NCBI GenBank assembly: GCA_965249725.1
Contig: CBDFMQ010000002.1
Location: 1,184,001-1,248,000 of the forward strand
Direction of reading: 5' to 3'
Origin: Longimicrobiales bacterium
GTDB taxonomy: Bacteria > Gemmatimonadota > Gemmatimonadetes > Longimicrobiales > Gaopeijiaceae
DNA: 64,000 bases
Shown: positions 6,401-21,325 of the stretch, piece after piece
How positions within the stretch are numbered: the stretch's first letter is position 1
How the letters are laid out: each line of letters opens with the position of its first letter
Program-made: the position numbers and the translations under genes
The notes under the pieces: generated by a model
What the model was told of the DNA's origin: nothing
What the model saw: the letters and a program-made list of their open reading frames with translations, nothing else
Databases searched by the model: none

Positions 6401-7899
6401 ATCTTCTGGCTGGCCAGAGCCACGAGTCCTTCGTTGGTCCGGGTACGCCGCATGACCCCGAGCAGTTCGCTCATGGCGTCGGCCGGTGACACGTCAGACA
6501 ATTGTCGACGCATCGCCCGTGAGACGGACAGGCTGTCGGAATCGAGCAGCAACTCCTCTTTCCGCGTCGCCGACGCGGTGAGATCGATGGCCGGGTAGAG
6601 CCTCTTGTCCGCCAACTCCCGACTGAGCACCAACTCGCTGTTTCCCGTGCCCTTGAATTCCTCGAAGATGACTTGGTCCATCCGGGATCCGGTGTCGACG
6701 AGAGCCGTGGCGACGATCGTCAATGATCCCCCACCCTGCCGAGGGTCGATCTTCCGCGCACTGCCGATGAAGCGCTTCGGCTTCTCTAGCGAATTCGCAT
6801 CGAGTCCTCCAGAGAGTGTACGACCGCTCCCCTCCTCGACCGAGTTGTAGGCCCGCGCGAGCCGCGTGATCGAATCCAGAATGATCACCACGTCCTTGCC
6901 GCTCTCCACCATCCGGCGAGCGCGCTCGAGAGTCATTTCGGCGACCTGGCAGTGACGCTCGGCCGGTCGGTCGAAACTCGATGCGATCACCTCGCCGAAG
7001 CCGCACATCTCCATGTCCGTGATCTCCTCGGGCCGTTCGTCGGCAAGGAGGATCAACAGCGTGCACTCCGGGTGGTTCGTCACGATCCCCTCGGCAACCG
7101 CCTGGAGCACCGTGGTCTTACCGGCCTTCGAGGGAGCGACGATCATGGCCCGCTGTCCCTTGCCGAACGGGCAGAACAGGTCGATGACGCGATTCGTGTA
7201 GTCCGGCTCTCCGCCCACGGTCCGATCACAGGACAGGGTGAGCTGCTCGCTGGGGTGAACCGCACTCAAACGGTTGAAATCGGGGCGTCGGCTGGCGTCG
7301 TCAGGAGGACCCCCGTTGACCAGGCCCAGATGTGTAAGCGGCGGACTCTTGCCGTTCTTGGGACGCCGTCCTACGGATCCGGTGAGTTCGTCTCCGGTAC
7401 GCAGGCCGAACTTATGAATCACTTTGGCGCCGACGTAGATGTCTTCCTGGCTGGCTATGTAGCCCGCATCACGGCGGCGGATGAACCCTGAGCCACTACC
7501 GAGCACTTCAAGGAGGCCCAGGGGCTCTCCGGGCACGTAGTTCTCATCGGTCTCATTGAATTCATAGTCGTACTCATCCGGAGCATTCCGATTCTGCTGC
7601 TGCCGGTTCTGCTGCTGCCGGTTCTGCTGCTGGCCACCCTGCTGCTGGCCACCTTGCTGCTGGCCACCTTGCTGCCCCCGACCTCGACCCCGACCTCGGC
7701 CTCGCTTCTGTCGGCCTCGTTGGCCTCGACCGCGCTGCGGGGGACGATCCTGTTTGTCCCCAGACTCGGAACGATCCTGGGACGCAGAGGAACCCTGTTC
7801 CTCTCGATTCTGCTGCTCGGGACCCTTCTGGTCCGGAGACTCCGGCTGATCCTGCTGTGCCTCGGAATCGAGGCGATCATTGGGTGTGTTACCGTCCAC
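6397..7899 (-). CDS. rho: Transcription termination factor Rho with low-complexity N-terminal extension
   Basis: APSKAGKT P-loop, DERPEE, DSITRLARAYN, GRTLSGGLD, FEEFKGTGNSEL; first ~120 aa are Q/N/G/R-rich. Confidence 0.95.
   Translation of the reverse strand: MDGNTPNDRLDSEAQQDQPESPDQKGPEQQNREEQGSSASQDRSESGDKQDRPPQRGRGQRGRQKRGRGRGRGRGQQGGQQQGGQQQGGQQQNRQQQNRQQQNRNAPDEYDYEFNETDENYVPGEPLGLLEVLGSGSGFIRRRDAGYIASQEDIYVGAKVIHKFGLRTGDELTGSVGRRPKNGKSPPLTHLGLVNGGPPDDASRRPDFNRLSAVHPSEQLTLSCDRTVGGEPDYTNRVIDLFCPFGKGQRAMIVAPSKAGKTTVLQAVAEGIVTNHPECTLLILLADERPEEITDMEMCGFGEVIASSFDRPAERHCQVAEMTLERARRMVESGKDVVIILDSITRLARAYNSVEEGSGRTLSGGLDANSLEKPKRFIGSARKIDPRQGGGSLTIVATALVDTGSRMDQVIFEEFKGTGNSELVLSRELADKRLYPAIDLTASATRKEELLLDSDSLSVSRAMRRQLSDVSPADAMSELLGVMRRTRTNEGLVALASQKI
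7588..7674. repeat. Coding 15-bp tandem repeats inside rho (QQQNR x3 and GGQQQ-type x3)
   Basis: ccg(a/g)ttctgctgctg x3 followed by gccacc(c/t)tgctgctg x2 plus a partial third copy. Confidence 0.9.
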
Positions 7900-8312: not shown

Positions 8313-9611
8313 ATGCTGTCCGTTCGTCATCAGCGTCGCGATTTCCTCAAATCGTTGGCGGCCTTGGCTCTCGCCGGGCCCGCCGTCTCACGTCTCGAAC
8401 TCGTCGAAGAGGCGTTCGGTGCCGAACTCGAGTACGTCGCTTCCGGCCCTCGTTCCGCTGCCACCTGGGAGGCACTCCGAGAGCGATACATGCTTGCCTC
8501 CGACGTCGTCTATCTGAATCACGCCTCGATCGGAACGATTCCGCGAGCAGTCCACGAGGCATGTGTCGAGTACATGCGCGTCTGCGAGGAAAACCCCTGG
8601 CTGTATATGTGGGGCGGCGCCTGGGAGGAGCCCCGCGAGGCCGTCCGCAACAAAGCCGCCGCCCTCCTCGGAGCCGATCCCGACACCGTCGCCATCACAC
8701 ACAACACCACGGAGGGCTTCAACGTCCTGGCCCAAGGCCTGCCGCTGGGCCCAGGTGACGAGGTACTCTACAGCTCCATGAATCACGATGGTGCCAGCGT
8801 CGCGTGGGACCACCACGCCTCCAGGAGAGGATACGCCGTCCGCCGCTTCGACTTTCCGGTGACGGACGTACCCAACCTCACCGTCGACCAGGTTGTCGAG
8901 ATCCATCGCCGCCAGATTCGTCCCGAGACCAGGGTGCTCGTCTTCCCCCATGTGGACAACATCGTGGGTCTCCGGCACCCCATGGCGGCCCTCACGGCGA
9001 TGGCCAGGGCGGAGGGCGTTGAGTTCGTTGCGGTGGACGGAGCGCAAACCGCCGGCATGATTCCCCTGGACCTCGAAGCGTCGGGAGTCGACGCCTACTC
9101 GACCAGTCCACACAAGTGGATCCAGTCTCCCAAGGGCCTGGGCCTTCTCTACGTGAGACGAGAGGCCCTCGAGGCGGTCCACCCGATGTGGGTCACATGG
9201 GGCCAACGCCGCTGGTCCGGGAGCGCACGAATGTTCGAGGACTACGGCACGCGCAACCTTGCCGAACTTCTGGCCATGGGTGATGGGCTCGACTTCCAGA
9301 ACAGCCTCGGATCCGAGCACAAGGAGACCCGATACCGGGAAATCCGGGAGGACCTGAAGGCCCGCGTTGAGGCCGACCCGTCCCTCTCCTGGCGTTCGCC
9401 CGAGAATTGGGAACTCGGCGGATCGCTCATCGGGATCGGCTTTGAATCGCCGGGGGCCAACGCGGTGTCGGTCGGCATGTACACCGATCGGGGCATCGTC
9501 CTCCGTCCCTTCCAGACCCAGGGCCTCAACGCCCTGCGGATCTCTCCCAACACGATCACATCTTCACAGGAGATCGAGGCCCTTTTCTCGGCTCTCGACG
9601 CTCGGAGCTGA
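8313..9611 (+). CDS. Class V PLP-dependent aminotransferase-fold enzyme (isopenicillin-N epimerase / cysteine lyase-like) with Tat signal
   Basis: RRDFLK twin-arginine motif; YLNHASIG, NTTEG, VDGAQ, SPHKW (PLP lysine). Confidence 0.85.
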   Translation: MLSVRHQRRDFLKSLAALALAGPAVSRLELVEEAFGAELEYVASGPRSAATWEALRERYMLASDVVYLNHASIGTIPRAVHEACVEYMRVCEENPWLYMWGGAWEEPREAVRNKAAALLGADPDTVAITHNTTEGFNVLAQGLPLGPGDEVLYSSMNHDGASVAWDHHASRRGYAVRRFDFPVTDVPNLTVDQVVEIHRRQIRPETRVLVFPHVDNIVGLRHPMAALTAMARAEGVEFVAVDGAQTAGMIPLDLEASGVDAYSTSPHKWIQSPKGLGLLYVRREALEAVHPMWVTWGQRRWSGSARMFEDYGTRNLAELLAMGDGLDFQNSLGSEHKETRYREIREDLKARVEADPSLSWRSPENWELGGSLIGIGFESPGANAVSVGMYTDRGIVLRPFQTQGLNALRISPNTITSSQEIEALFSALDARS

Positions 9612-9795: not shown

Positions 9796-11211
9796 GTGCG
9801 TAGGCTGATCGGAACGGCGTTGGTACTCGGCTTCGCCCTCACCTGGCGTCCCGAAGCGGTATCTGGACAGTATTCCTGGAGCAGCTTCTCCTTCTCCTTG
9901 GGGGTCGGCTTTGGAGTGGGGCTGTCCTACACGACCGTGGATCCATGGTACCAGCCTGCCTATGACGATCTCTGCTGGTCGTACACCTACTACGACTCGT
10001 ACTCGTACCCCTGCCGTCGCAGCTACTATGACGCGGGCTACTCCGACTACGGCTACGGCTATCACGACCACTATCACAGCCGCCGCTACATCAGTCTCTC
10101 ATATGGCTACATGCCTTGGCGCTTCTCCTATCCGGCCTATTGGGGCTACGGGTGGGGCGTCCCCTACTGGGGCGGCAGCACACGGTTGGCCTTCGGCAGC
10201 CTCTACGACTACAACTGGTTCGGCTACCGGAATCACCGGGGTGGGGTGAGCAGCGCGTATACCTACGGCGACTACGCCTACTACAACTATCGGGCACCGA
10301 ACACTTACGTGCCGCCTCGTTCGACCCAAGCAACCGGACGGTATGCCAGAGGAGGGGCCGTCAACGGTCTCGGCTACAAAGAGTCGCCACGGTCCACCTC
10401 TGCCACACGTGTGGCGACCAATCGTGGAGGAACCTCGAGTGCCGCCGCCGCCAACAGCGCCGCGCGGAGTGATGTCTCAGCGACCGTCGCCCGCTCCGCC
10501 CAGCGGAACGCCGCAGGTGGTCGAGCGGTCGCGCCCCGGACGCGTGCTTCCGCGGACCGAGCCGCCCCCAGCAGCGGGGCGAGGGCCGTACGGCCGACCG
10601 TGACGAGAGCTCGTCCTACGGACGCCGTGCGGGGTCGGACTGACGTACGCTCCGGAGTGGCCCGAACGCGAGCACCGGCAGCCCGCTCAGCGCCCTCGAG
10701 GAGCGCGACTCCTTCAGCGAGAACCGCACCGTCTACCCGTCGGTCCAACGCCGATCGGCCGTCGCCGAGCACGCGCTCGAACCTACGGCTCCGGGACCCG
10801 AGTTCCGCACGCGCGGCGCCTTCGAGGTCGAGCACGCGTTCGACGAGGCCCGATAGGGCTCGTCCGGTGCCCCGGGCGGCCCCGAGCCGTACCAGGAGTG
10901 CACCGTCCAGGTCCACCCGGAGGGCACCGTCGAAGCCTACACCGAGTCGGAGTTCGGCCAGGAGCGCCAGGCCACCTCGGACCTCTACTCGCGCGGCAAG
11001 GCCGAGCGTGAGTCCGCGCCGGAGTGCCGGCCGCGGAGCATCGGCCCGTAGCGCTCCTCGTTCATCGACGCGTAGCGCACCCCGGTCATCGGCCCGTAGC
11101 GGCCGTGGATCAGCCTCGATGCGTAGCGCACCCCGTTCGTCGGGTCGCAGCGCTCCCTCCCGGAGCCGCTCGGGTGGTTCCCGCTCAGGCGTGCGCCCCA
11201 GGGGGGGCTGA
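9796..11211 (+). CDS. Secreted low-complexity protein: Tyr/Gly-rich N-half, Arg/Ser/Ala/Pro-rich C-tail
   Basis: Strong RBS AAGGAGG, signal-peptide-like start, 471 aa ORF filling the gap between the PLP enzyme and hutI. Confidence 0.75.
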   Translation: MRRLIGTALVLGFALTWRPEAVSGQYSWSSFSFSLGVGFGVGLSYTTVDPWYQPAYDDLCWSYTYYDSYSYPCRRSYYDAGYSDYGYGYHDHYHSRRYISLSYGYMPWRFSYPAYWGYGWGVPYWGGSTRLAFGSLYDYNWFGYRNHRGGVSSAYTYGDYAYYNYRAPNTYVPPRSTQATGRYARGGAVNGLGYKESPRSTSATRVATNRGGTSSAAAANSAARSDVSATVARSAQRNAAGGRAVAPRTRASADRAAPSSGARAVRPTVTRARPTDAVRGRTDVRSGVARTRAPAARSAPSRSATPSARTAPSTRRSNADRPSPSTRSNLRLRDPSSARAAPSRSSTRSTRPDRARPVPRAAPSRTRSAPSRSTRRAPSKPTPSRSSARSARPPRTSTRAARPSVSPRRSAGRGASARSAPRSSTRSAPRSSARSGRGSASMRSAPRSSGRSAPSRSRSGGSRSGVRPRGG

Positions 11212-11220
11212 CCGGAGCAG

Positions 11221-12447
11221 TTACGCTCCTACCACGACGCCGTCTTGGACCACTGATCGGCACGGGTTGACGCCGATCCAGTAGGCCAGTTCGCGTGGGT
11301 GATTCACGTCCCATAGGGCCAGATCGGCCCGTTTCCCCGACTCGAGCGTACCCACTTCGGTCCCCAGACCCAGGGCCAGCGCGGCGTTCCTCGTCACCCC
11401 TGCGAGCGCCTCTTCCGGAGTCAGACGGAAGAGTGTGCAGCCCATGTTCAGGATCGTAAGGAGCGAGAGGATCGGTGACGAGCCCGGGTTGGCGTCGGTC
11501 GCCAGGGCCATGGGTACGCCGGCGTTCCTGAACGCATCTACCGGAGGCCTATGCGTTTCGCTCAGGTAGTAGAACGCTCCGGGAAGCAGGACTGCGACGG
11601 TCCCCGCGGCCGCCATCGCGCTCACCCCGTCTTCGGACGTGTACTCGAGGTGGTCGGCGGAGAGGGCCGAGAAGCTGGCGGCGAGCGCGGCACCTCCCGT
11701 ATCCGAAAGCTGATCCGCGTGCAGCCGGACGGGCAGGCCCATGCTCGTTGCGGCATGAAAGAACGTCGTGCACTCCTCAGGTGTGAAGGCGATGCCTTCG
11801 CAGAAGGCATCGACAGCGTCGACCAGCCCCTCCTCTACCGCCGCCGGAAGAAGCTCGTCCACGACCATCGAAACAAACTCGCCTCGTCGGCCGTCGAACT
11901 CGGGCGGAAGCGCATGGAGAGCGAGCAGCGTGGTCCGCACGGTCACGGGAAGGCTCTCGCCCAGGCTCCGCGCGGCCCGCAGCATCGTCAACTCGGTGGT
12001 CACGTCCATGCCGTACCCGGACTTGATCTCCAGGGTGGTGACGCCCTGCCGCAGGAGTCGGCCGACGCGTCCTGCCGCGGCAAACTCCAGTTCGCCAGGA
12101 GAGGCCTCCCGCGTGTCACGTACGGTGGACCGGATCCCTCCACCCGCCTGAGCGATCTCGGCGTACGTAGCACCCTGCAGGCGCGCCTCGAACTCATCCG
12201 CCCTGTCCCCTCCGAACACCAGGTGTGTGTGGCAATCGATGAGACCTGGAGTAATCCAGGCACCGCCGACGTCGTGCACCTGTGTGTCCGGGCCGATATC
12301 GCCATCTGGGACGTCCGACCTGGACCCCACCCAGTCGAGCCGTCCTCCGGTGACGGCCACGGCACCGTCGGCTACCTCTCCAAAAGCGGCTCCCCCACCT
12401 TGCATGGTGGCGAGGTGGGCATTGAGCCAAACGCTGTCGAAAGCCAA
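11221..12447 (-). CDS. hutI: Imidazolonepropionase
   Basis: [44 protein letters not shown]. Confidence 0.95.
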
Positions 12448-12502
12448 AGGGAGTCCTATTCCGTTGGTGTTTCCGGTCGGGCGTGGATTCTCTCGGAGGC
12501 GG

Positions 12503-14344
12503 TCAACCCTCGAGTGCCGCCTCTACGTACCCTTCCACCTCTCGCACCGCCTCGTCGGCACCCTGAAGGAGTCCATCCAGCTTTCCCCGAACCTCCTGGT
12601 CGAACACTTCATCTGAGATGTTCGGGAGGTTGATGCGCACGTTGTAGATGGCCGACTTGAGGCCCGCATGAGCCATGAGCGCTCCGGAACCGACGTCGCT
12701 GATCATCTCTGGCGTGGCCATGGCGGCCATCTCCTTGCAGAGGGTCATCGCTTCCAAGCAACCCTCTGCGGTCCCGAGGGGAACGAGCGTCGCCGTCTTG
12801 TATCCCTCTTGAATCGCCTCTGAACGAGCGACCCGCTCCTCTTCGGTATCTCTCGGCATACGCATGCCCGTGAGGACAGAATCGAACGCCTGCGTGTCCT
12901 CGTCCACCATGCGCACGAGTCGGTCCTTCACCGCCTGCGCCCGCTCTGCGATCGAGCAGAGCTGCTCGTAGCGATCGTCGAATTCGCCCTTCCCGACGGA
13001 CAGGTTCACCACCATGGACGCCAAGGCCCCACCGAGGGCTCCTGCCAACGCGGCTACCGATCCACCACCCGGCGCGGGCGTCTCCCGGGAGACCTCGTCG
13101 ATGAAGTCGTAGGTGGGCCGTAGCACCAACGGTCCCTCGACGGTGGGCATCGCAAGCACCTTCTCCCGCACGTCGAACTGCGCGACATCCCTTAGCCCCA
13201 TGGACTGGATCGCCGTCTCCAGAAGGTCGGGTACCGGGATTCCCGTCGACTTCATGGCCCGGCGCCGATAGAAGACACCGGCCTGCCTCAAGGCCTCGAA
13301 GGGGATGAGGCCCACCAGTTCCGAGCCGGTAATGACGACGCCCCGCTTGCGAGCCTCTTCCCGAGCGGCCTCGAGAACCTCATGGGGCGGACTGACATTG
13401 AAGTTCGTGAAGTTGATGCTGATTTGTGCTCGGTCGTACTCGTCGATCACCCATCCGATCGCCTTCACATCGGTGAAAAGACCATCGTCGAAAACGGGTC
13501 CGGTCGGAGCCTCCGGATCGACGTCGAGGGCCTGATACCGCGCCCGAAGATCACCTCCGTGCACTTCCTTATAGTGCTTCTCAAGCCCCTCGAAGGTCTC
13601 GCCCACGAAGTCGCACGGCCCGCACGGATAGGTGCCGTCCTCGGCGAAGCGAACAACCTCACCTTTGTAGTAGAAGGGTTCGGTGTTGCCCACCCGCTTC
13701 CAACGCCCCCTCTCCCGGATTGCATATGCGATGTCGTTGGCATAGCGCCGGTCGGTGGAGTTGAGGTTGATGTTGTACGCGATCAAGAACTCCCGGGCAC
13801 CCACACAGGTGGCCCCGGCGCTCGGATTCAGATCCTGCGGCCCGAAATCCGGGTGCCAGTCGGGATCCTTGAGCTTCTCGGCCATCCCTTCGTACTCGCC
13901 GGCTCGCACCTGGGCCAGGTTCCGCCGTTCGGGGCGGCTCGCCGCGTGTTCGTAAAGGAAGATCGGAATGTCCAGCTCGGCCCCGATCCGCTCTCCGACT
14001 CGTTGGGCCATGGCCACACATTCGTCCATGGTCACACCGGACACCGGCACGAAGGGGACGACGTCTGTGGCACCCATCCGGGGATGCTCACCCTGATGCT
14101 CCCGCATGTCGATGAGTTGGGCCGCGCGGGCGACGCACTGAAAGGCGGCCTCCTCCACCGCTTCGGGAGGGCCGACGAACGTGACCACCGTCCTGTTCGT
14201 ATTGGCCCCCGGATCGACGTCGAGAAGGCGTACGCCCGCTACCGCTTCAGCGGCGTTGGTGATTTCCTTCAGGACAGCGGGATTTCGCCCCTCGGAGAAG
14301 TTGGGAACACACTCGACGATCCGTTGAGACATCTGTTGAGACAT
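12503..14344 (-). CDS. ftcd: Bifunctional glutamate formimidoyltransferase / formimidoyl-THF cyclodeaminase
   Basis: [30 protein letters not shown]-terminal cyclodeaminase [12 protein letters not shown] and NVRINL. Confidence 0.93.
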
Positions 14345-14350
14345 CTAGGG

Positions 14351-16036
14351 TCAGCCCTCACGCATTGGAAGACGAAGTCCTTCTCGGTCGGCGGTTTCGA
14401 CCGCCTTCTCGTATCCCGCGTCGGCATGTCGTACCACACCGATCCCGGGATCGTTGGTCAGCACGCGGCGAATGCGCTCGGACATCTGGGGTGAGCCGTC
14501 GGCTACGAGGACCTGGCCCGCATGAAGCGAATTGCCGATGCCCACTCCCCCCCCGTGATGGAACGACACCCAGCTCGCACCCGACGCCGTGTTCAGCAGG
14601 GCGTTCAGTATAGGCCAATCGGCGACCGCATCGCTGCCATCGAGCATGGCCTCGGTCTCGCGATAGGGAGAGGCCACCGATCCCGTATCCAGATGGTCGC
14701 GCCCGATCACGATGGGTGCCGAGATCTCACCGCTGCCGACAAGCTCGTTCATCGCCACGCCGAATCGAGCCCGCTCACCCTGCCCAAGCCAACAGATCCT
14801 GGCCGGCAATCCCTGGAAGTGGACCTTCTCACGCGCCATACCGATCCAGCGTATCAGATGCTCGTCATCGGGGAACATCTCGAGAACCAAATCGTCGGTC
14901 CGGTGAATGTCGGCGGGATCTCCGGAGAGTGCGACCCACCGGAACGGTCCCTTACCCTCACAGAACAGGGGCCGGACGTACGCCGGCACGAAGCCCGGAA
15001 AGGCGAAAGCGTCTGCGAAACCAGCGTCCAGAGCCTGGGTCCGAAGGTTGTTGCCGTAGTCCGTCGTGTGGGCACCCGCCCGCATGAGTGCCACCATTGC
15101 CTCACAGTGGACACGCATCGACTCCATGGACCGGCGTACGTAGTCGTCCGGATCGGCCGTACGTAGCGCCTCGGCCTCGGCCAACGAGAGGCCTGCCGGG
15201 ACATAGCCGTTCAGCGGGTCGTGGGCGGACGTCTGATCAGTGAGCAGATCGGGTACGATGCCGCGTGCCGCGATCTCGGGGATCACCTCCGCGCAGTTGC
15301 CCACCAGACCGACGCTGAGGGCCTCACCCCGGTCGGCAGCACCACGGGTCCATTCGAGCGCCTCGTCGAGATCATCGGTCATCCGGTCGCAGTATCCCGT
15401 GTCGAGTCGGCGCTGAATTCGGGTGGGATCCACCTCGACGACCAGGATCGCGCCGCCGTTCATCGTCGCGGCAAGCGGCTGCGCGCCACCCATTCCCCCC
15501 ATCCCTCCGGTGAGCACCCAGCGACCCTTCAGGCTCGAGCCGAAGTGCTGTTGTGCCATGGCCCCGAAGGTCTCGTACGTCCCCTGCAGAATGCCCTGGC
15601 TTCCGATGTAGATCCACGAGCCGGCCGTCATCTGGCCGTACATCATGAGGCCTTTCTGCTCGAGCTCGTTGAAGTGGTCCCAGTTGGCCCAACGACCCAC
15701 GAGGTTGGAGTTGGCGAGGAGCACTCGGGGGGCATCGGTATGGGTGGTGAAGACGCCGACCGGCTTGCCGGACTGAACGAGCAGGGTCTCGTCGTCCTCC
15801 AGCTCCCTAAGGGTCGCCACGATTCGATCGAACGCTTCCCAACTCCGGGCGGCCCGACCGGTTCCACCGTAGACGACCAGATCCTCGGGGCGTTCGGCAA
15901 CGTCCGGATCGAGGTTGTTCATCAGCATCCGGAGTGCCGCTTCCTGCGTCCATCCCTTGCAGGAAAGATCATTGCCGCGAGGGGCGCGGATGGTCCGCGC
16001 TCCGACGGTAGTGCTCAAAGCTGAATCCTCCCTCAC
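14351..16036 (-). CDS. hutU: Urocanate hydratase
   Basis: [53 protein letters not shown]. Start may be TTG 16018 (GGAGG upstream). Confidence 0.97.
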
Positions 16037-17538
16037 TCGCCCAGAGCGGCGAGTGCTCCTGTCCGTATCAGATCTCGCACGGCCGTGAAGTCGCCCGAGA
16101 GGCTGCGGTCGCCCTCTAGGCGGTCGACGTGCTCGCGAATCAACGAGTGGGCCTCCTCTACCCCGTCGCCGGCCTTGAGTGGCCGGTGGTATTCGACGGC
16201 CTCGGCCGCCGCCGTCAGCTCGATGGCGAGGACGTACTCGAAACAGTCCGCGACCCGTCGCGCCTTGCGTGCGGCGGTCAGGCCCATGGAAACATGGTCT
16301 TCCTGGTTGGCGCTCGTGGGCACCGAATCGACGCTCGCAGGATGGCAGAGCACCCGCATCTCGGCGAGCAGATCAACCGCCGTGACCTGAGCGATCATTA
16401 AGCCGGACTCGAGCCCGGGCTGCCGCGCCAAGAACGCGGGCAAGCCGGAAAGATCGGGATTGAGCAGACGTTCGATGCGCCGCTCGCTGATCGCCGCCAG
16501 GTCCGTGACGGCCATGCAGAGCAGATCGAGCGCCTGGGAGACGACCTGTGCATGGAAGTTGCCTGCGCTCACCACGGCTCGGGTTTCCGGAAAGACGAGC
16601 GGGTTGTCCGTCGTGCTATTGGCCTCCGTGGTCAGCACCTGCCGGACGTAGCCGAGCGCGTCCCGAGCCGCCCCGTGTACCTGCGGCATGCATCGCAAAC
16701 AGTATGCGTCCTGGACCCTCGGGTCCCCATGCCGGTGCGACTCCCGAATTTCGGAGTTGGCCAAGAGCCCCCGAAGCCGACGGGCCGACTCGATCTGACC
16801 GGGATGGGGCCGGGCTTCCTGTACCTCCGCAAGGAACGCGTCGGGCGTGCCCTCGAGTGCCTCCAGGCTCAAACAGCCCGCCGTCTCGGCGGTGTCGAGC
16901 GCCCGCTGCGCCGAGAGCAGGGCGAGGATCCCGAGACCCGTGGTGGCCTGGGTGCCGTTGATGAGGGCCAGCCCTTCCTTCTCTCGCAGCTCGAGGGCCT
17001 CCATTCCAAGCTCGGCGAATACCTCGGCCGCGTCTCGAAGCTGGCCTCCGTGCTCGACGCGACCCTCACCGATCAGCCCGAGGGCGATGTGCGCCAACGG
17101 AGAAAGATCCCCACTGGCGCCCACGGATCCGACTCGCGGCACGACGGGGTGTACCCCGTGATTCAGGAAGTCCAGCAAACGGTCGATCACCTCTTCGCGA
17201 CAACCCGAATTCCCGCGGGCGAGAGCGTTCGCCCGGAGGATCATGATCGCCCGCACCTCTTCGGTGGCCATCGGCGTATCCACGCCGGAAGCGTGACTGC
17301 GCACCAGGTTTCGTTGAAGGTCACCCTGCTGATCGGAAGAGATGACGACCTCCGCGAGGCGGCCGAATCCAGTGGTGACGCCGTAGATGCGCTCCCCACT
17401 CTTCAGGAGCTCCTCGATGAAGGCTCGAGCGCGCCGCACGCCGGGGCGAGCCGCCTCCGCCAGAGAGACAGGCACCCGGTCCACCGCGGCCAACTCGAGA
17501 GCCTCCAACGAAAGGTCGTGACCCGTGAGCTCGATCAT
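16033..17538 (-). CDS. hutH: Histidine ammonia-lyase
   Basis: [11 protein letters not shown]-forming [43 protein letters not shown]. Confidence 0.96.
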
Positions 17539-18137
17539 TCAGCGACCCTTCTTCGTCGTTCCTCGAATTCGACCTTGGTGAGCGTGAAGGGACCTCGACT
17601 CCAATCGGTCTCCAACTCCACGCCCAGACCGTCGGCCAGTCGGTTCACGTAGTTGTAGTAGCACGTCACCTGGCAGATATCGAGAATCGCCGCGTCTCCG
17701 AAGCCGACGTCGCGGAGTCGCTGGACGTCCCCCTCGTCTACTTGCCAGGGTGCCAGGGTCAGCTTCACCGCATAGTCGAGCATCGCCCGATCCGCGGCGC
17801 CGAGATCGGCCTCCCGATAATCGCGCGCAAGCGCCTTCGACAGTTCGGGGTCCTCGGTGAGCGTACGGAGTCCCGCCCCGTGATGGTTGATTCAATAGAA
17901 ACAGTCGTTCGCCGACGAAACGGTCACCGCGATCATCTCCCGCTGCACACGACTCAACGGAGATTGCCCTCGCATGAGGTGCGCGTAGAGGCGCACGTGG
18001 TGCTCCATGGAGGGAGGGTTCTGGGAGTGGATCCGGATGATGTTGTCGACGCGCATCTCCGATCCCCCGTATCGCTGATAGAGCTCGGCGAGGGGTCCCT
18101 CCGCGTCTTCGTACGGAACGTATGGGATGTGGGCCAA
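17535..18137 (-). CDS. AhpD-like / CMD-family peroxidase-related selenoprotein (Sec at in-frame TGA 17892-17894), 200 aa
   Basis: ORFs 17892..18137 and 17535..17783 are in the same frame, separated by one TGA. Read-through gives ...VSSANDCFY-U-INHHGAGLRTLTEDPELSKALARDYREADLGAADRAMLDYAVKLT..., with U at the second Cys position of the AhpD CxxC motif. Confidence 0.85.
17865..17894 (-). promoter_or_regulatory. Putative bacterial SECIS element
   Basis: mRNA UGA-AUCAACCAUC-ACGGGG-CGGGA-CUCCGU: 6-bp stem (one G-U) with a G-rich apical loop starting 16 nt after the UGA. Confidence 0.65.
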
Positions 18138-18320
18138 TACTCGGTAGCCTGCTCAAGAGGTCTGTTGAAGAAGGCCGCGGGTGGCGTCAGGTGCGCCAGA
18201 CGTCTGTTCGCACGTTGGAAGTGCGGAAACATGCCCTCGTCGTGGGGGTGGGGCAATGGCTTCTCCGAAGCGCCCATAAAGGGCAAACTCCTTTGCTCTT
18301 CGGCTGATCCGGGGTGCACA

Positions 18321-18389
18321 TTCCGGCGCCCCACGGCCAATAACCCGCTGAGCGATCGGTGGAAGAAGATCAACCGAAGTCGATCCCGG
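18321..18389 (+). mobile_element. Possible IS5-family transposase remnant
   Basis: Translates FRRPTANNPLSDRWKKINRSRSR, resembling the stretch before the 'RARxEH' motif of IS5 transposases; isolated in a ~700-bp intergenic gap. Confidence 0.35.
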
Positions 18390-18840
18390 TCTTCACCACC
18401 CGCGGCTCAGCTCGTGTCATGGCCCCCACCACCCCTCGTCCGCCGGAGACACAAGTAACGGGCAGTTGTGAAAAGTCCCGCCTGGGACTCCGGTCGTTAT
18501 ACAGGTGTCCCGTCTCTCAGCCGTCGCCATCACGGCGCTGTTCGTGCCGTCCTCCAAGATCCCCCTCACGCCTTGCCGCCCGGCGCGCCCCGTTCTACCG
18601 TGCGTTTCCAGGCGACAGAGCGCTTGAACCGCCTATCCCTCATTCCTTCTTGCAAACGACTCTGCTCATGCACGATTGGCGCGGGACTTGGGGCCCCACG
18701 GCGTCGGTCGTGCGAACATGCTCAGAGGCATGACTTGTTGTTAGGCGAAGACTCGGAACAGGAGGGGATCCGGCCTAAAGGCCAACGGGAAAGAAACCCG
18801 TTCCTCCTCACCTCTCTCGACGATCCTCGGGACATCCACC

Positions 18841-20601
18841 ATGAGCAGTGAAATCCGCTTTGGCACGTTTGTCCGCGTGGCAACCATTCGGCATGACATC
18901 ATTAGCTTCAATGATCTGGTCAGGACGTACCCCGCCGAGACTCGGGGCAGGATCAAGCTGCGCCCCCTCGATGCCTACCGCCTCCTCGCCCCGTATCTCT
19001 ACAACCGCGTGTTCGAGCAGGCCCGGGCCGTCATTCCGCTGGCGCTGTATCTGCTCCTATTCCAGGTGTTCATACTCCGGCAGGAAGTCGCAGGTGCGGC
19101 GATACTCACCGCCGGGCTGTTCGCCGTCATCGTCGGCCTCATGCTGTTCATGGAGGGACTCAAGGTCGGCTTGATGCCCTTTGGCGAGACAATAGGCCAT
19201 ACCCTACCTGTACATTCGCCCTTGCCAGTGGTGTTGCTGATCGTCTTTCTCCTGGGTATCGGAGTGACTTTCGCCGAACCCGCCATCGGCGCTCTGAAGG
19301 CCGCCGGGCAATTCGTCGACGTCGCTACCGCCCCATATCTGTACGCGCTGCTCAACCAATGGTCCGGGGTATTGGTGTTGGTTGTCGGCATCGGGGTCGG
19401 TCTCGCTGCCCTTATCGGAACGCTGAGGTTTCTGTACGGCTGGAGTCTCAAGACCTTGGTATACATCACCCTACTACCTCTGCTCGCTCTGACTCTCTAC
19501 GCGTCACAGGACCCCAATCTCGCACCCATACTGGGCCTGGCCTGGGACGCTGGAGCAGTGACCACCGGGCCGGTAACCGTGCCGCTGGTGCTGGCGCTCG
19601 GTGTCGGCATCGCGGGCGCCGCAGGCCGTGGTGACTCTTCACTTGCCGGCTTCGGAATAGTTACGCTCGCCTCGCTCTTCCCGGTAATCGCCGTCCAGGG
19701 ACTGGCGCTGTTCGTAACTTACCAGCAGTCCCCAGAAATGATTATCGAGGCCGCACGGACGCTTTCCCAGAGCACTTCAGGCAACCGGCTGACGCAGTCA
19801 CCCGGCGCTGAAATTGTCGCCGGAATCCGCTCCATCGTACCACTCGTCGTCTTCTTGCTGTTCGTGCTGATGGTTCTCTTGAAACACAAACTGCCGCGGC
19901 CATGGATCACCGCCTATGGCATCACCCTTTGTGTTCTTGGCATGGTCGTCTTCAATCTCGGCCTGACCTACGGGCTGTCGGTGCTGGGCTCGCAAGCCGG
20001 GAGCCTCGTACCCGCAGCCTTTTCGCCGCTGGAAAGCGTCGCCAGTTCACCACTGTATTCCGTGGCCGCCGGACTGGTTATCGCGGTCAGCTTCGCCTGG
20101 GTTCTGGGGTTCGGTGCGACCCTCGCCGAACCGGCGCTGAATGCACTTGGCCTGACCGTCGACAACCTGACCAACGGCTCCTTCCGCAAATCGACGTTGA
20201 TGTACGCCGTTTCTTTTGGCGTGGGCTGCGGTATCGCCCTCGGTGTATCCAGAATCATTTACGACTTGCCACTGGTATGGCTGGTCGTCCCAGGATACAC
20301 GATCGCCATCGTCTTGACGTGGCTTTCAACCGAAGAATTCGTCAATATCGCGTGGGACAGTGCTGGGGTGACAACCGGTCCAGTCACGGTGCCGCTCGTT
20401 CTGGCGATGGGGCTCGGCTTCGGCGAGGCCGTTGGAGCCGGGGACGGATTTGGCATCCTCGCGATGGCCTCCATTGGTCCCATACTGTCCGTGATGTGCA
20501 TAGGCCTGTGGATCAACTGGAAGATCGGGCGTAAACACGTCACAGACGAGCAACGAGGGCTCGCCGGTGGCCGAACGGAGAACCGGGGTATGGTCGCATG
20601 A
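18841..20601 (+). CDS. Tandem DUF1538 integral membrane protein
   Basis: Two copies of the signature pair (TF/TL)AEPA(I/L) and WD(A/S)(G/A)xVTTGPVTVPLVLA(L/M)G. Confidence 0.88.
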   Translation: MSSEIRFGTFVRVATIRHDIISFNDLVRTYPAETRGRIKLRPLDAYRLLAPYLYNRVFEQARAVIPLALYLLLFQVFILRQEVAGAAILTAGLFAVIVGLMLFMEGLKVGLMPFGETIGHTLPVHSPLPVVLLIVFLLGIGVTFAEPAIGALKAAGQFVDVATAPYLYALLNQWSGVLVLVVGIGVGLAALIGTLRFLYGWSLKTLVYITLLPLLALTLYASQDPNLAPILGLAWDAGAVTTGPVTVPLVLALGVGIAGAAGRGDSSLAGFGIVTLASLFPVIAVQGLALFVTYQQSPEMIIEAARTLSQSTSGNRLTQSPGAEIVAGIRSIVPLVVFLLFVLMVLLKHKLPRPWITAYGITLCVLGMVVFNLGLTYGLSVLGSQAGSLVPAAFSPLESVASSPLYSVAAGLVIAVSFAWVLGFGATLAEPALNALGLTVDNLTNGSFRKSTLMYAVSFGVGCGIALGVSRIIYDLPLVWLVVPGYTIAIVLTWLSTEEFVNIAWDSAGVTTGPVTVPLVLAMGLGFGEAVGAGDGFGILAMASIGPILSVMCIGLWINWKIGRKHVTDEQRGLAGGRTENRGMVA

Positions 20602-20975
20602 CACAACGGGGAATCACGGTACTGACCGAAGCATCGGTGATCACGTGCATCGTGCAGCGAGGGCTCGCAGACAAGATCGTGAAGGCCGCCCAGGATGCAG
20701 GCGCGCAGGGAGCGACTGTTAACTACGCCCAGGGCGTCGGTGTGCGTGAGCGGCTGGGCATCATGGGTCTGGCCATCGAAGTCGACAAGGAAGTCATCAC
20801 CATCATCGTCGCCAATGACCAGGCCGACCGGGTGTTTGAAGCCATGTACCTGGCAGGCAACCTCGATACGCCGGGCATGGGCATCATGACGCTCGCTGCG
20901 CTCGAGAAGATCGCCACCTACGTCCCCCTCGAACTGGTGGAACGGCTGGCGGAAAAGACTGACCCAGACACATGA
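20598..20975 (+). CDS. P-II-like signal transduction protein
   Basis: ITCIVQRG...AGAQGATVNYAQGVG...KEVI...PGMGIM; ATGA overlap with the DUF1538 gene. Confidence 0.85.
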   Translation: MTQRGITVLTEASVITCIVQRGLADKIVKAAQDAGAQGATVNYAQGVGVRERLGIMGLAIEVDKEVITIIVANDQADRVFEAMYLAGNLDTPGMGIMTLAALEKIATYVPLELVERLAEKTDPDT

Positions 20976-21325
20976 GGACGGTCGCGGACCAGAAGCTCAT
21001 CACCTGCATCGTACCGCACGGGCGGGCGCTGCCGGTGCTCATGGCGCTAAAGGAAGAACTCGGAATCGTGAGCACCACCATCCATCACGCCCGTGGGACC
21101 GGGCGTATGACTCCTCTGGCGTGGCGCGGCGTCGGTGAGGCAGCTGAGAAGGATGTCTTGACGGCCGTTGTGCCTGCTTCACGCGCAGCAGAGGTCTTTG
21201 GCTTCATATACGAACGTGGCAAGATCAGCGAGCCTCACGGCGGGATTCTTTATCAACGACGACTGGCTGCGAGCAGTGAGTTCCACCTCCCAGACTTGCC
21301 CGATGAGGGCACATCGGAGGGTTGA
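20972..21325 (+). CDS. Second P-II-like protein
   Basis: KLITCIVPHG...HARGTG...EKDVL...HGGIL; ATGA overlap with the first P-II gene. Confidence 0.8.
   Translation: MRTVADQKLITCIVPHGRALPVLMALKEELGIVSTTIHHARGTGRMTPLAWRGVGEAAEKDVLTAVVPASRAAEVFGFIYERGKISEPHGGILYQRRLAASSEFHLPDLPDEGTSEG

Follow-up and report, generated by a model that had tools for sequence, protein, structure and literature searches.

Proteins of the AhpD-like CxxU family ('AhpD-like 1'; TIGR01926/COG2128) figure in published lists of prokaryotic selenoprotein families (PMC13188914, PMC9312934), with 299 marine sequences reported (PMC2398784), and the operon section of PMC13188914 names Prx-like genes as the sole neighbors of the AhpD-like genes. 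In Deinococcus radiodurans, the mutant of DR1765 is sensitive to H2O2 and both cysteines of this AhpD-like protein are needed (PMC8945050); judging by the titles, the solved structure 6k40 appears to be that of DR1765. A different kind of precedent is provided by the fdhF(Sec) gene of Treponema primitia, in which selenium raises the transcript levels downstream of the UGA codon (PMC3892789). In the literature searched, which took in few subscription journals and no supplements with genome tables, we came across no publication that connects AhpD with hut.

The locus described here lies in a 64,000-nucleotide stretch of a Longimicrobiales genome (contig CBDFMQ010000002.1, positions 1,184,001 to 1,248,000; henceforth the window), wherein a gene of the above family with an in-frame TGA stands at the head of an operon for histidine utilization.

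The selenoprotein gene and its decoding

The gene (17535..18137 (-)) codes for a protein of 200 aa from a TTG start at 18137, the equivalent position being occupied by an ATG in most relatives. A sequence-only reading of the window had described two open frames separated by a single TGA in the context VSSANDCFY*INHH, and this arrangement is as it was given, with the TGA at 17894-17892 forming codon 82 from the TTG start; gene callers split the gene at this codon. The frame beyond the TGA is indeed free of stops, but it extends for 118 codons and not merely for the 36 first noted, ending in the 4-base ATGA overlap with the start of hutH (17535..17538 (-)) that the same reading had pointed out. 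Contigs from four runs of three studies, including one run from which the window itself may derive, span the TGA with no alternative letter, which bears on the sequencing error that the reading had named as a possible refutation.

In NCBIfam profile searches the protein scores above the cut-offs of the peroxidase-related model TIGR01926 (145.1 bits vs. 81.8) and of the AhpD core domain TIGR00778 (42 bits vs. 27.8), and it matches PF02627 of Pfam; it falls below those of NF041238 (AhpD-related (seleno)protein; 62.4 vs. 175 bits) and TIGR04030 (69.7 vs. 233 bits), and shows no match to TIGR00777, the model of Mycobacterium tuberculosis AhpD, at E 0.001. It is a member of the already published AhpD-like CxxU selenoprotein family, and the family is hence not new. 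The structure model (pLDDT 90.4) aligns with 3c1l, 2pfx, 6k40, 2prr, and 2oyo at TM 0.76-0.81 and 29-38% identity, and the protein is predicted to adopt the CMD/AhpD helical fold. When aligned to homologs, as the earlier reading had advised, U82 of the active-site motif C79-F-Y-U82 (17892..17903 (-)) falls opposite the second Cys of the CxxC of the solved relatives, with E67, C79, Y81, U/C82, H85, and H86 unchanged in 18/18 aligned relatives. The C-terminus bears an extension of about 20 residues (W-x4-L-T-L/I-x3-E-F; 17538..17603 (-); pLDDT 71-83), which is typical of the clade delineated below, including hut-less members, and is missing in most relatives outside it.

The genome codes for selA, selB, and selD over their cut-offs (560, 325, and 375 bits) together with a tRNA-SeC, i.e., the machinery whose absence would have spoken against the earlier proposal. 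Among the best 80 of 585 confirmed relatives from genome contigs, 71 have TGA at this column and 9 have a Cys codon; for the best 80 of 584 from metagenomes, the numbers are 69 and 11. TGA and TGC/TGT are the sole codons in these 160/160 best loci; the relatives keeping the TGA span several phyla. When the best match per genome is taken, selA is present in 16/18 genomes with close TGA-type genes (the two without it, G009 and G010, being 78% and 88% complete) vs. 1/8 with Cys-type genes.

The consensus of bacterial SECIS elements is a hairpin that lies immediately 3' of the UGA and carries a G early in its loop. A hairpin 10 nt 3' of the TGA, as originally noted, is present at 17881-17865 (17865..17881 (-)) in the form ACGGGG-CGGGA-CTCCGT, with a 6-pair stem and a 5-nt loop (CGGGA). 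Single-sequence folding of this element is not significant (z -0.26 to +0.69), with the minimum-energy fold pairing otherwise. In a comparison of 134 loci, which yielded 122 distinct 30-nt stretches, 6/6 stem pairs form in 77/105 distinct TGA sequences vs. 1/17 Cys sequences, counts that are inflated by kin in a set that nonetheless covers many phyla and contains changes in both partners of a pair. The expectation for the full stem under synonymous resampling is 2.1/104, indicating that codon choice is biased toward the stem, and loop position 1 or 2 is a G in 94/105 TGA sequences. The hairpin thus draws strong support from the cross-sequence comparison, and the set offers a clean example of a SECIS element shaping codon choice. 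The selenocysteine reading of the TGA is borne out by the family profile, the sel machinery, the conservation of the TGA, and the comparative support for the hairpin, from which we infer Sec insertion at UGA82.

The alternative that the TGA is a genuine stop (in a pseudogene or a gene split in two), arose as an error of sequencing, or is recoded in some other way could appeal to the hairpin being weak on its own, with z near 0. However, it is refuted by the retention of the TGA, or else Cys, across phyla in the above sets (71/80 and 69/80), the intact TGA in the contigs of three studies, the full Sec machinery, and the conservation of both gene halves with a dN/dS of about 0.16. TGA also serves as an ordinary stop elsewhere in the operon, and we accord this alternative next to no probability.

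Other selenoprotein genes were seen in the same genome. The selD gene is itself one (L003, G000:C1:279375-280298 (-)), with a TGA in the context GAG*ASK and a strong hairpin 3' of it. A second CxxU gene of TIGR01926 (CRYU, 113.6 bits; L005:1492-2052 (-), G000:C3:1296013-1296564) lies away from hut and has a differing hairpin, and a candidate UxxC gene (FYRGHWUPWC) at G000:C3:2223709 (+) presumably belongs to a peroxiredoxin-like family. A crude genome scan for further selenoproteins returned mostly noise. The genome also has a tRNA array of 19 genes in about 2.8 kb (G000:C3:1903222-1906030 (-)).

The hut operon and its probable expression

The selenoprotein gene is followed by hutH (histidine ammonia-lyase; 16033..17538 (-); TIGR01225, 662.5 bits, cut-off 539), hutU (urocanate hydratase; 14351..16036 (-); TIGR01228, 964 bits), which overlaps hutH by a GTGA, ftcd (glutamate formimidoyltransferase-cyclodeaminase; 12503..14344 (-); TIGR02024, 362 bits, with three FTCD Pfam domains), and hutI (imidazolonepropionase; 11221..12447 (-); TIGR01224, 469.5 bits), all four of which pass their NCBIfam cut-offs. 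Both the motif GSVGASGDL and Cys283 are found in 44/44 of the HutH sequences examined.

A promoter-like site (TTGCCC-17 nt-CATGTT; 18228..18256 (-)) is located 90 nt upstream of the selenoprotein gene. The pattern, whose counts are biased in its favor as it was read by eye off the same sequences, precedes 25/59 orthologous selenoprotein genes, with 0.8 expected in shuffles, and 3/39 hutH genes lacking the selenoprotein gene; a generic promoter scan found no promoter. The selenoprotein gene is first in the operon because its upstream neighbor is divergent. The 4-base overlap with hutH recurs in 40/52 adjacent loci although the length of the protein varies from 195 to 247 aa, and a Shine-Dalgarno-like stretch precedes hutH in 25 of these 40 overlaps; since the hutH-hutU junction has a like overlap, such overlaps appear to be the local norm. 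The genome has a canonical rho gene and no HutC over the cut-off, an Rfam scan of window positions 11000-19000 gave one chance match and no riboswitch, and no ahpC is found among the neighbors annotated at the locus. The co-expression of the selenoprotein with hutH-hutU-ftcd-hutI that was originally supposed stands in so far as the promoter-like site and the overlaps point to it, and on these sequence features co-transcription and translational coupling of the gene with hut would be expected.

The surroundings of the operon contain several further genes. A second rho-like gene (window 6421-7554 (-); G000:C3:1190421-1191554), a 515-aa open frame with a Gln/Arg-rich N-terminus that scores 479 bits, below the cut-off, lies downstream of hut in many genomes of the family. 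Divergent from the operon (window 18841-21325 (+)), a membrane protein of the DUF1538 (UmpAB-like) type is encoded in duplicate, and two PII-like genes that overlap each other come after it. A 471-aa ORF at window 9796-11211 (+), whose first half is rich in Tyr and Gly and whose tail consists of repeats rich in Arg, Ser, and Ala, has no Pfam or NCBIfam match, and a class V aminotransferase at window 8313-9611 (+) shows a Tat-like leader (RRDFLK) and is nearest to PvdN, below the cut-off.

Reach and origin of the pairing with hutH

The closest relatives of the selenoprotein among the matches listed come, by their named records, from Gemmatimonadota including Longimicrobiales. In a quick tree of 135 rows, 35/41 rows of one clade (SH-aLRT 88; redrawn on 53 rows) adjoin hutH, a count that includes two identical rows and one adjoining a 60-codon hutH remnant (G002), as against 0/94 rows outside the clade, seven of which lie too close to a contig end for an adjacency call. 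Among metagenome loci (best 80 of 584), hut genes are found at 5/80, all carrying the long C-terminal tail of the clade. The pairing with hutH thus had a single origin, in one Longimicrobiales family, and a conservation of the AhpD-hutH adjacency across Gemmatimonadota, the test set by the sequence-only reading, is not seen. Neighbors other than hut that recur among the best 80 of 585 distant loci are lineage-local. Within the clade, many genera have kept the pair, at protein identities as low as about 52%, and the 4-base overlap has been re-established on C-terminal tails that differ in length. In several relatives (L037, L038, L041, L042, and L048) the selenoprotein gene has just upstream of it a sequence resembling a tRNA, judged by eye to have a Cys anticodon, which is possibly an insertion site.

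Across the 131 genomes of the family that are ≥90% complete, as counted by hand from two tables, the pair is adjacent in 35, both genes are present but apart in 10, hutH alone is present in 48, the selenoprotein gene alone in 6, and neither in 32. Three genomes flagged as unpublished (G037, G056, and G232) enter the tallies of this study, and none of its conclusions depends on them otherwise. The clade's selenoprotein gene is thus found in 51/131 and hutH in 93/131 (87 over the cut-off), with the former three times commoner in genomes with hutH (45/93) than in those without (6/38), a contrast drawn from kin that are not independent and from neighbors that can be deleted together. Given its presence in 45/93 hutH genomes of the family and its adjacency at 0/94 rows beyond the clade, the gene does not behave as a core hut gene; its lead position in the operon is family-limited and probably not obligatory.

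The six genomes with the selenoprotein gene and without hutH (G002, G345, G309, G357, G127, and G176) include two (G127 and G176; 98% complete, in 1-2 contigs) that are also without hutU while the flanks are the same, and three (G002, G345, and G357) with hut remnants behind an intact selenoprotein gene, suggesting that the losses in these 3/6 cases may be recent. All six hut-less genes retain the CFYU motif and the hairpin, with a dN/dS of 0.10-0.25 vs. 0.165 as the median over 41 pairs of linked genes, a pairwise measure that dilutes recent relaxation. On the other side, hutH occupies the corresponding syntenic position in several lineages that have no selenoprotein gene there, and the hutH tree requires 16 changes, at least 6 of them on strong branches. 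In G003 a Cys variant of the gene also adjoins hutH. The hutH remnant of G002 (L008/L145; G002:C7:437731-437916) is accompanied by intact selenoprotein, hutU, ftcd, and hutI genes, a configuration that possibly reflects urocanate-only use.

Function of the selenoprotein and comparison with known systems

These observations are best fitted by an ordinary AhpD-like CxxU member acting as a general redox enzyme that rides on the hut transcript, a reading we consider probable. By analogy to its relatives, the protein would be a helical CMD-fold thiol/selenol oxidoreductase that reduces peroxides or disulfides. In AhpD, the attack is made by the second Cys. We propose that the hairpin recruits SelB, which would bring Sec-tRNA to UGA82, and, following work on AhpD, that Sec82 would attack a peroxide or disulfide and Cys79 resolve the product, with the conserved Glu67 and His85/86 as a putative proton relay. 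The gene would have been placed once between the hut promoter and hutH in the ancestor of the Longimicrobiales family. It would share a transcript with hut and be coupled to it in translation, while the selenoprotein would have its own job and not be a required part of histidine breakdown. The family and fold, the Sec machinery, the independent retention of either side, the single origin, and the lack of a HutC over the cut-off count in favor of the general enzyme; counting against it are the longevity of the pair, the rebuilt overlap, its commonness with hutH, the recent hut losses, and the Cys variant of G003 staying beside hutH.

The latter features, namely the long-lived adjacency with its overlap, could instead indicate a dedicated helper that keeps the cysteines of HutH and HutU reduced, clears peroxide arising from histidine breakdown, or reduces or dehalogenates thio-, seleno-, or halo-histidines for entry into the pathway. 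Such a helper could also account for the clade-specific C-terminal extension and the invariant Cys283 of HutH (44/44), and its fold is also used in small-molecule chemistry, as in the debrominase Bmp8 (TM 0.72, 17-19% identity). However, the extension is retained in hut-less genomes, 48/93 hutH genomes lack the gene while six keep it without hutH, and the nearest solved relatives, which are peroxidase-related proteins, are far closer than Bmp8. A Bmp8-like dehalogenase was rejected as a distant match for which no supporting paper was found. HutH Cys113 was likewise dropped as a co-evolving site: a small sample had given 24/24 vs. 7/11, but in a larger one it is present in 35/39 linked vs. 29/42 unlinked genomes, marking it as a family trait, and no HutH column separates linked from unlinked genomes. 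In the catabolic operon for ergothioneine, a thiohistidine, a thiourocanate hydratase replaces urocanase and the lyase is without the ASG motif. Here, HutU scores 699 vs. 930 and 771 vs. 880 on the thiourocanate families as against 964 on the hutU model, and HutH has the ASG motif, both of which argue against a thio-histidine pathway; among the ovothiol matches listed, nothing concerned the selenoprotein gene. The functional link that the sequence-only reading had drawn to the protection of Hut enzymes or to thio/seleno-histidines is therefore not supported, given the confinement of the pair to one clade, the frequent keeping of each side alone, the absence of a HutH column tracking linkage, and the canonical nature of HutH and HutU as enzymes of ordinary histidine, and we hold a dedicated helper to be unlikely.

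It is also conceivable that the arrangement has been kept for tying hut to selenium, with ribosomes halting at codon 82 when selenium is lacking and hut output falling via lost coupling or Rho polarity. The location of the gene first after the promoter-like site, the 4-base overlap (40/52), the presence of Rho with no HutC over the cut-off, and the T. primitia precedent (PMC3892789) are all consistent with such a gate, but the fdhF of Escherichia coli shows no such effect according to the same source. Moreover, the Shine-Dalgarno-like stretch in 25/40 overlaps permits fresh initiation at hutH, the hutH-hutU junction has a like overlap, and the leader gene is freely lost and has Cys in G003. 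To our knowledge, no Hut enzyme requires selenium. Selection for a gate is in our estimation very unlikely, even though hut output may plausibly fall in a passive manner when selenium runs short, without any selection. A composite, in which a selenium-sensing leader gates hut and the selenoenzyme additionally prepares oxidized or halogenated histidines for the pathway or protects it, strikes us as distinctly improbable.

The set is also a clean instance of the insertion of a selenoprotein gene in the lead position of an operon unrelated to it, with either side then being gained or lost. Were selenium shortage polar on hut, a pathway that does not use selenium would be controlled via an upstream Sec codon; were the enzyme to act on a histidine derivative, this would be the first substrate for an abundant family with no assigned function. 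Compared with the rest of the AhpD-like CxxU family, the protein scores over the cut-off of the same HMM and has the same CxxU motif, but its gene heads a hut operon and codes for the C-terminal extension of about 20 residues. With the AhpD-like protein of D. radiodurans (6k40) and 2pfx, 3c1l, 2oyo, and 2prr it shares the fold, whereas the D. radiodurans protein has Cys where Sec is found here; we know of no hut link for that protein or its structural-genomics relatives. M. tuberculosis AhpD (TIGR00777) is distant, the common ground being the core domain TIGR00778 and a weakly aligned CxxC (E 0.026). As in T. primitia fdhF(Sec), a UGA with its SECIS element near the beginning of the transcript might cause uncoupling from translation under a lack of selenium, but there the effect is within one gene, while the one proposed here would fall on four downstream genes that do not code for selenoproteins.
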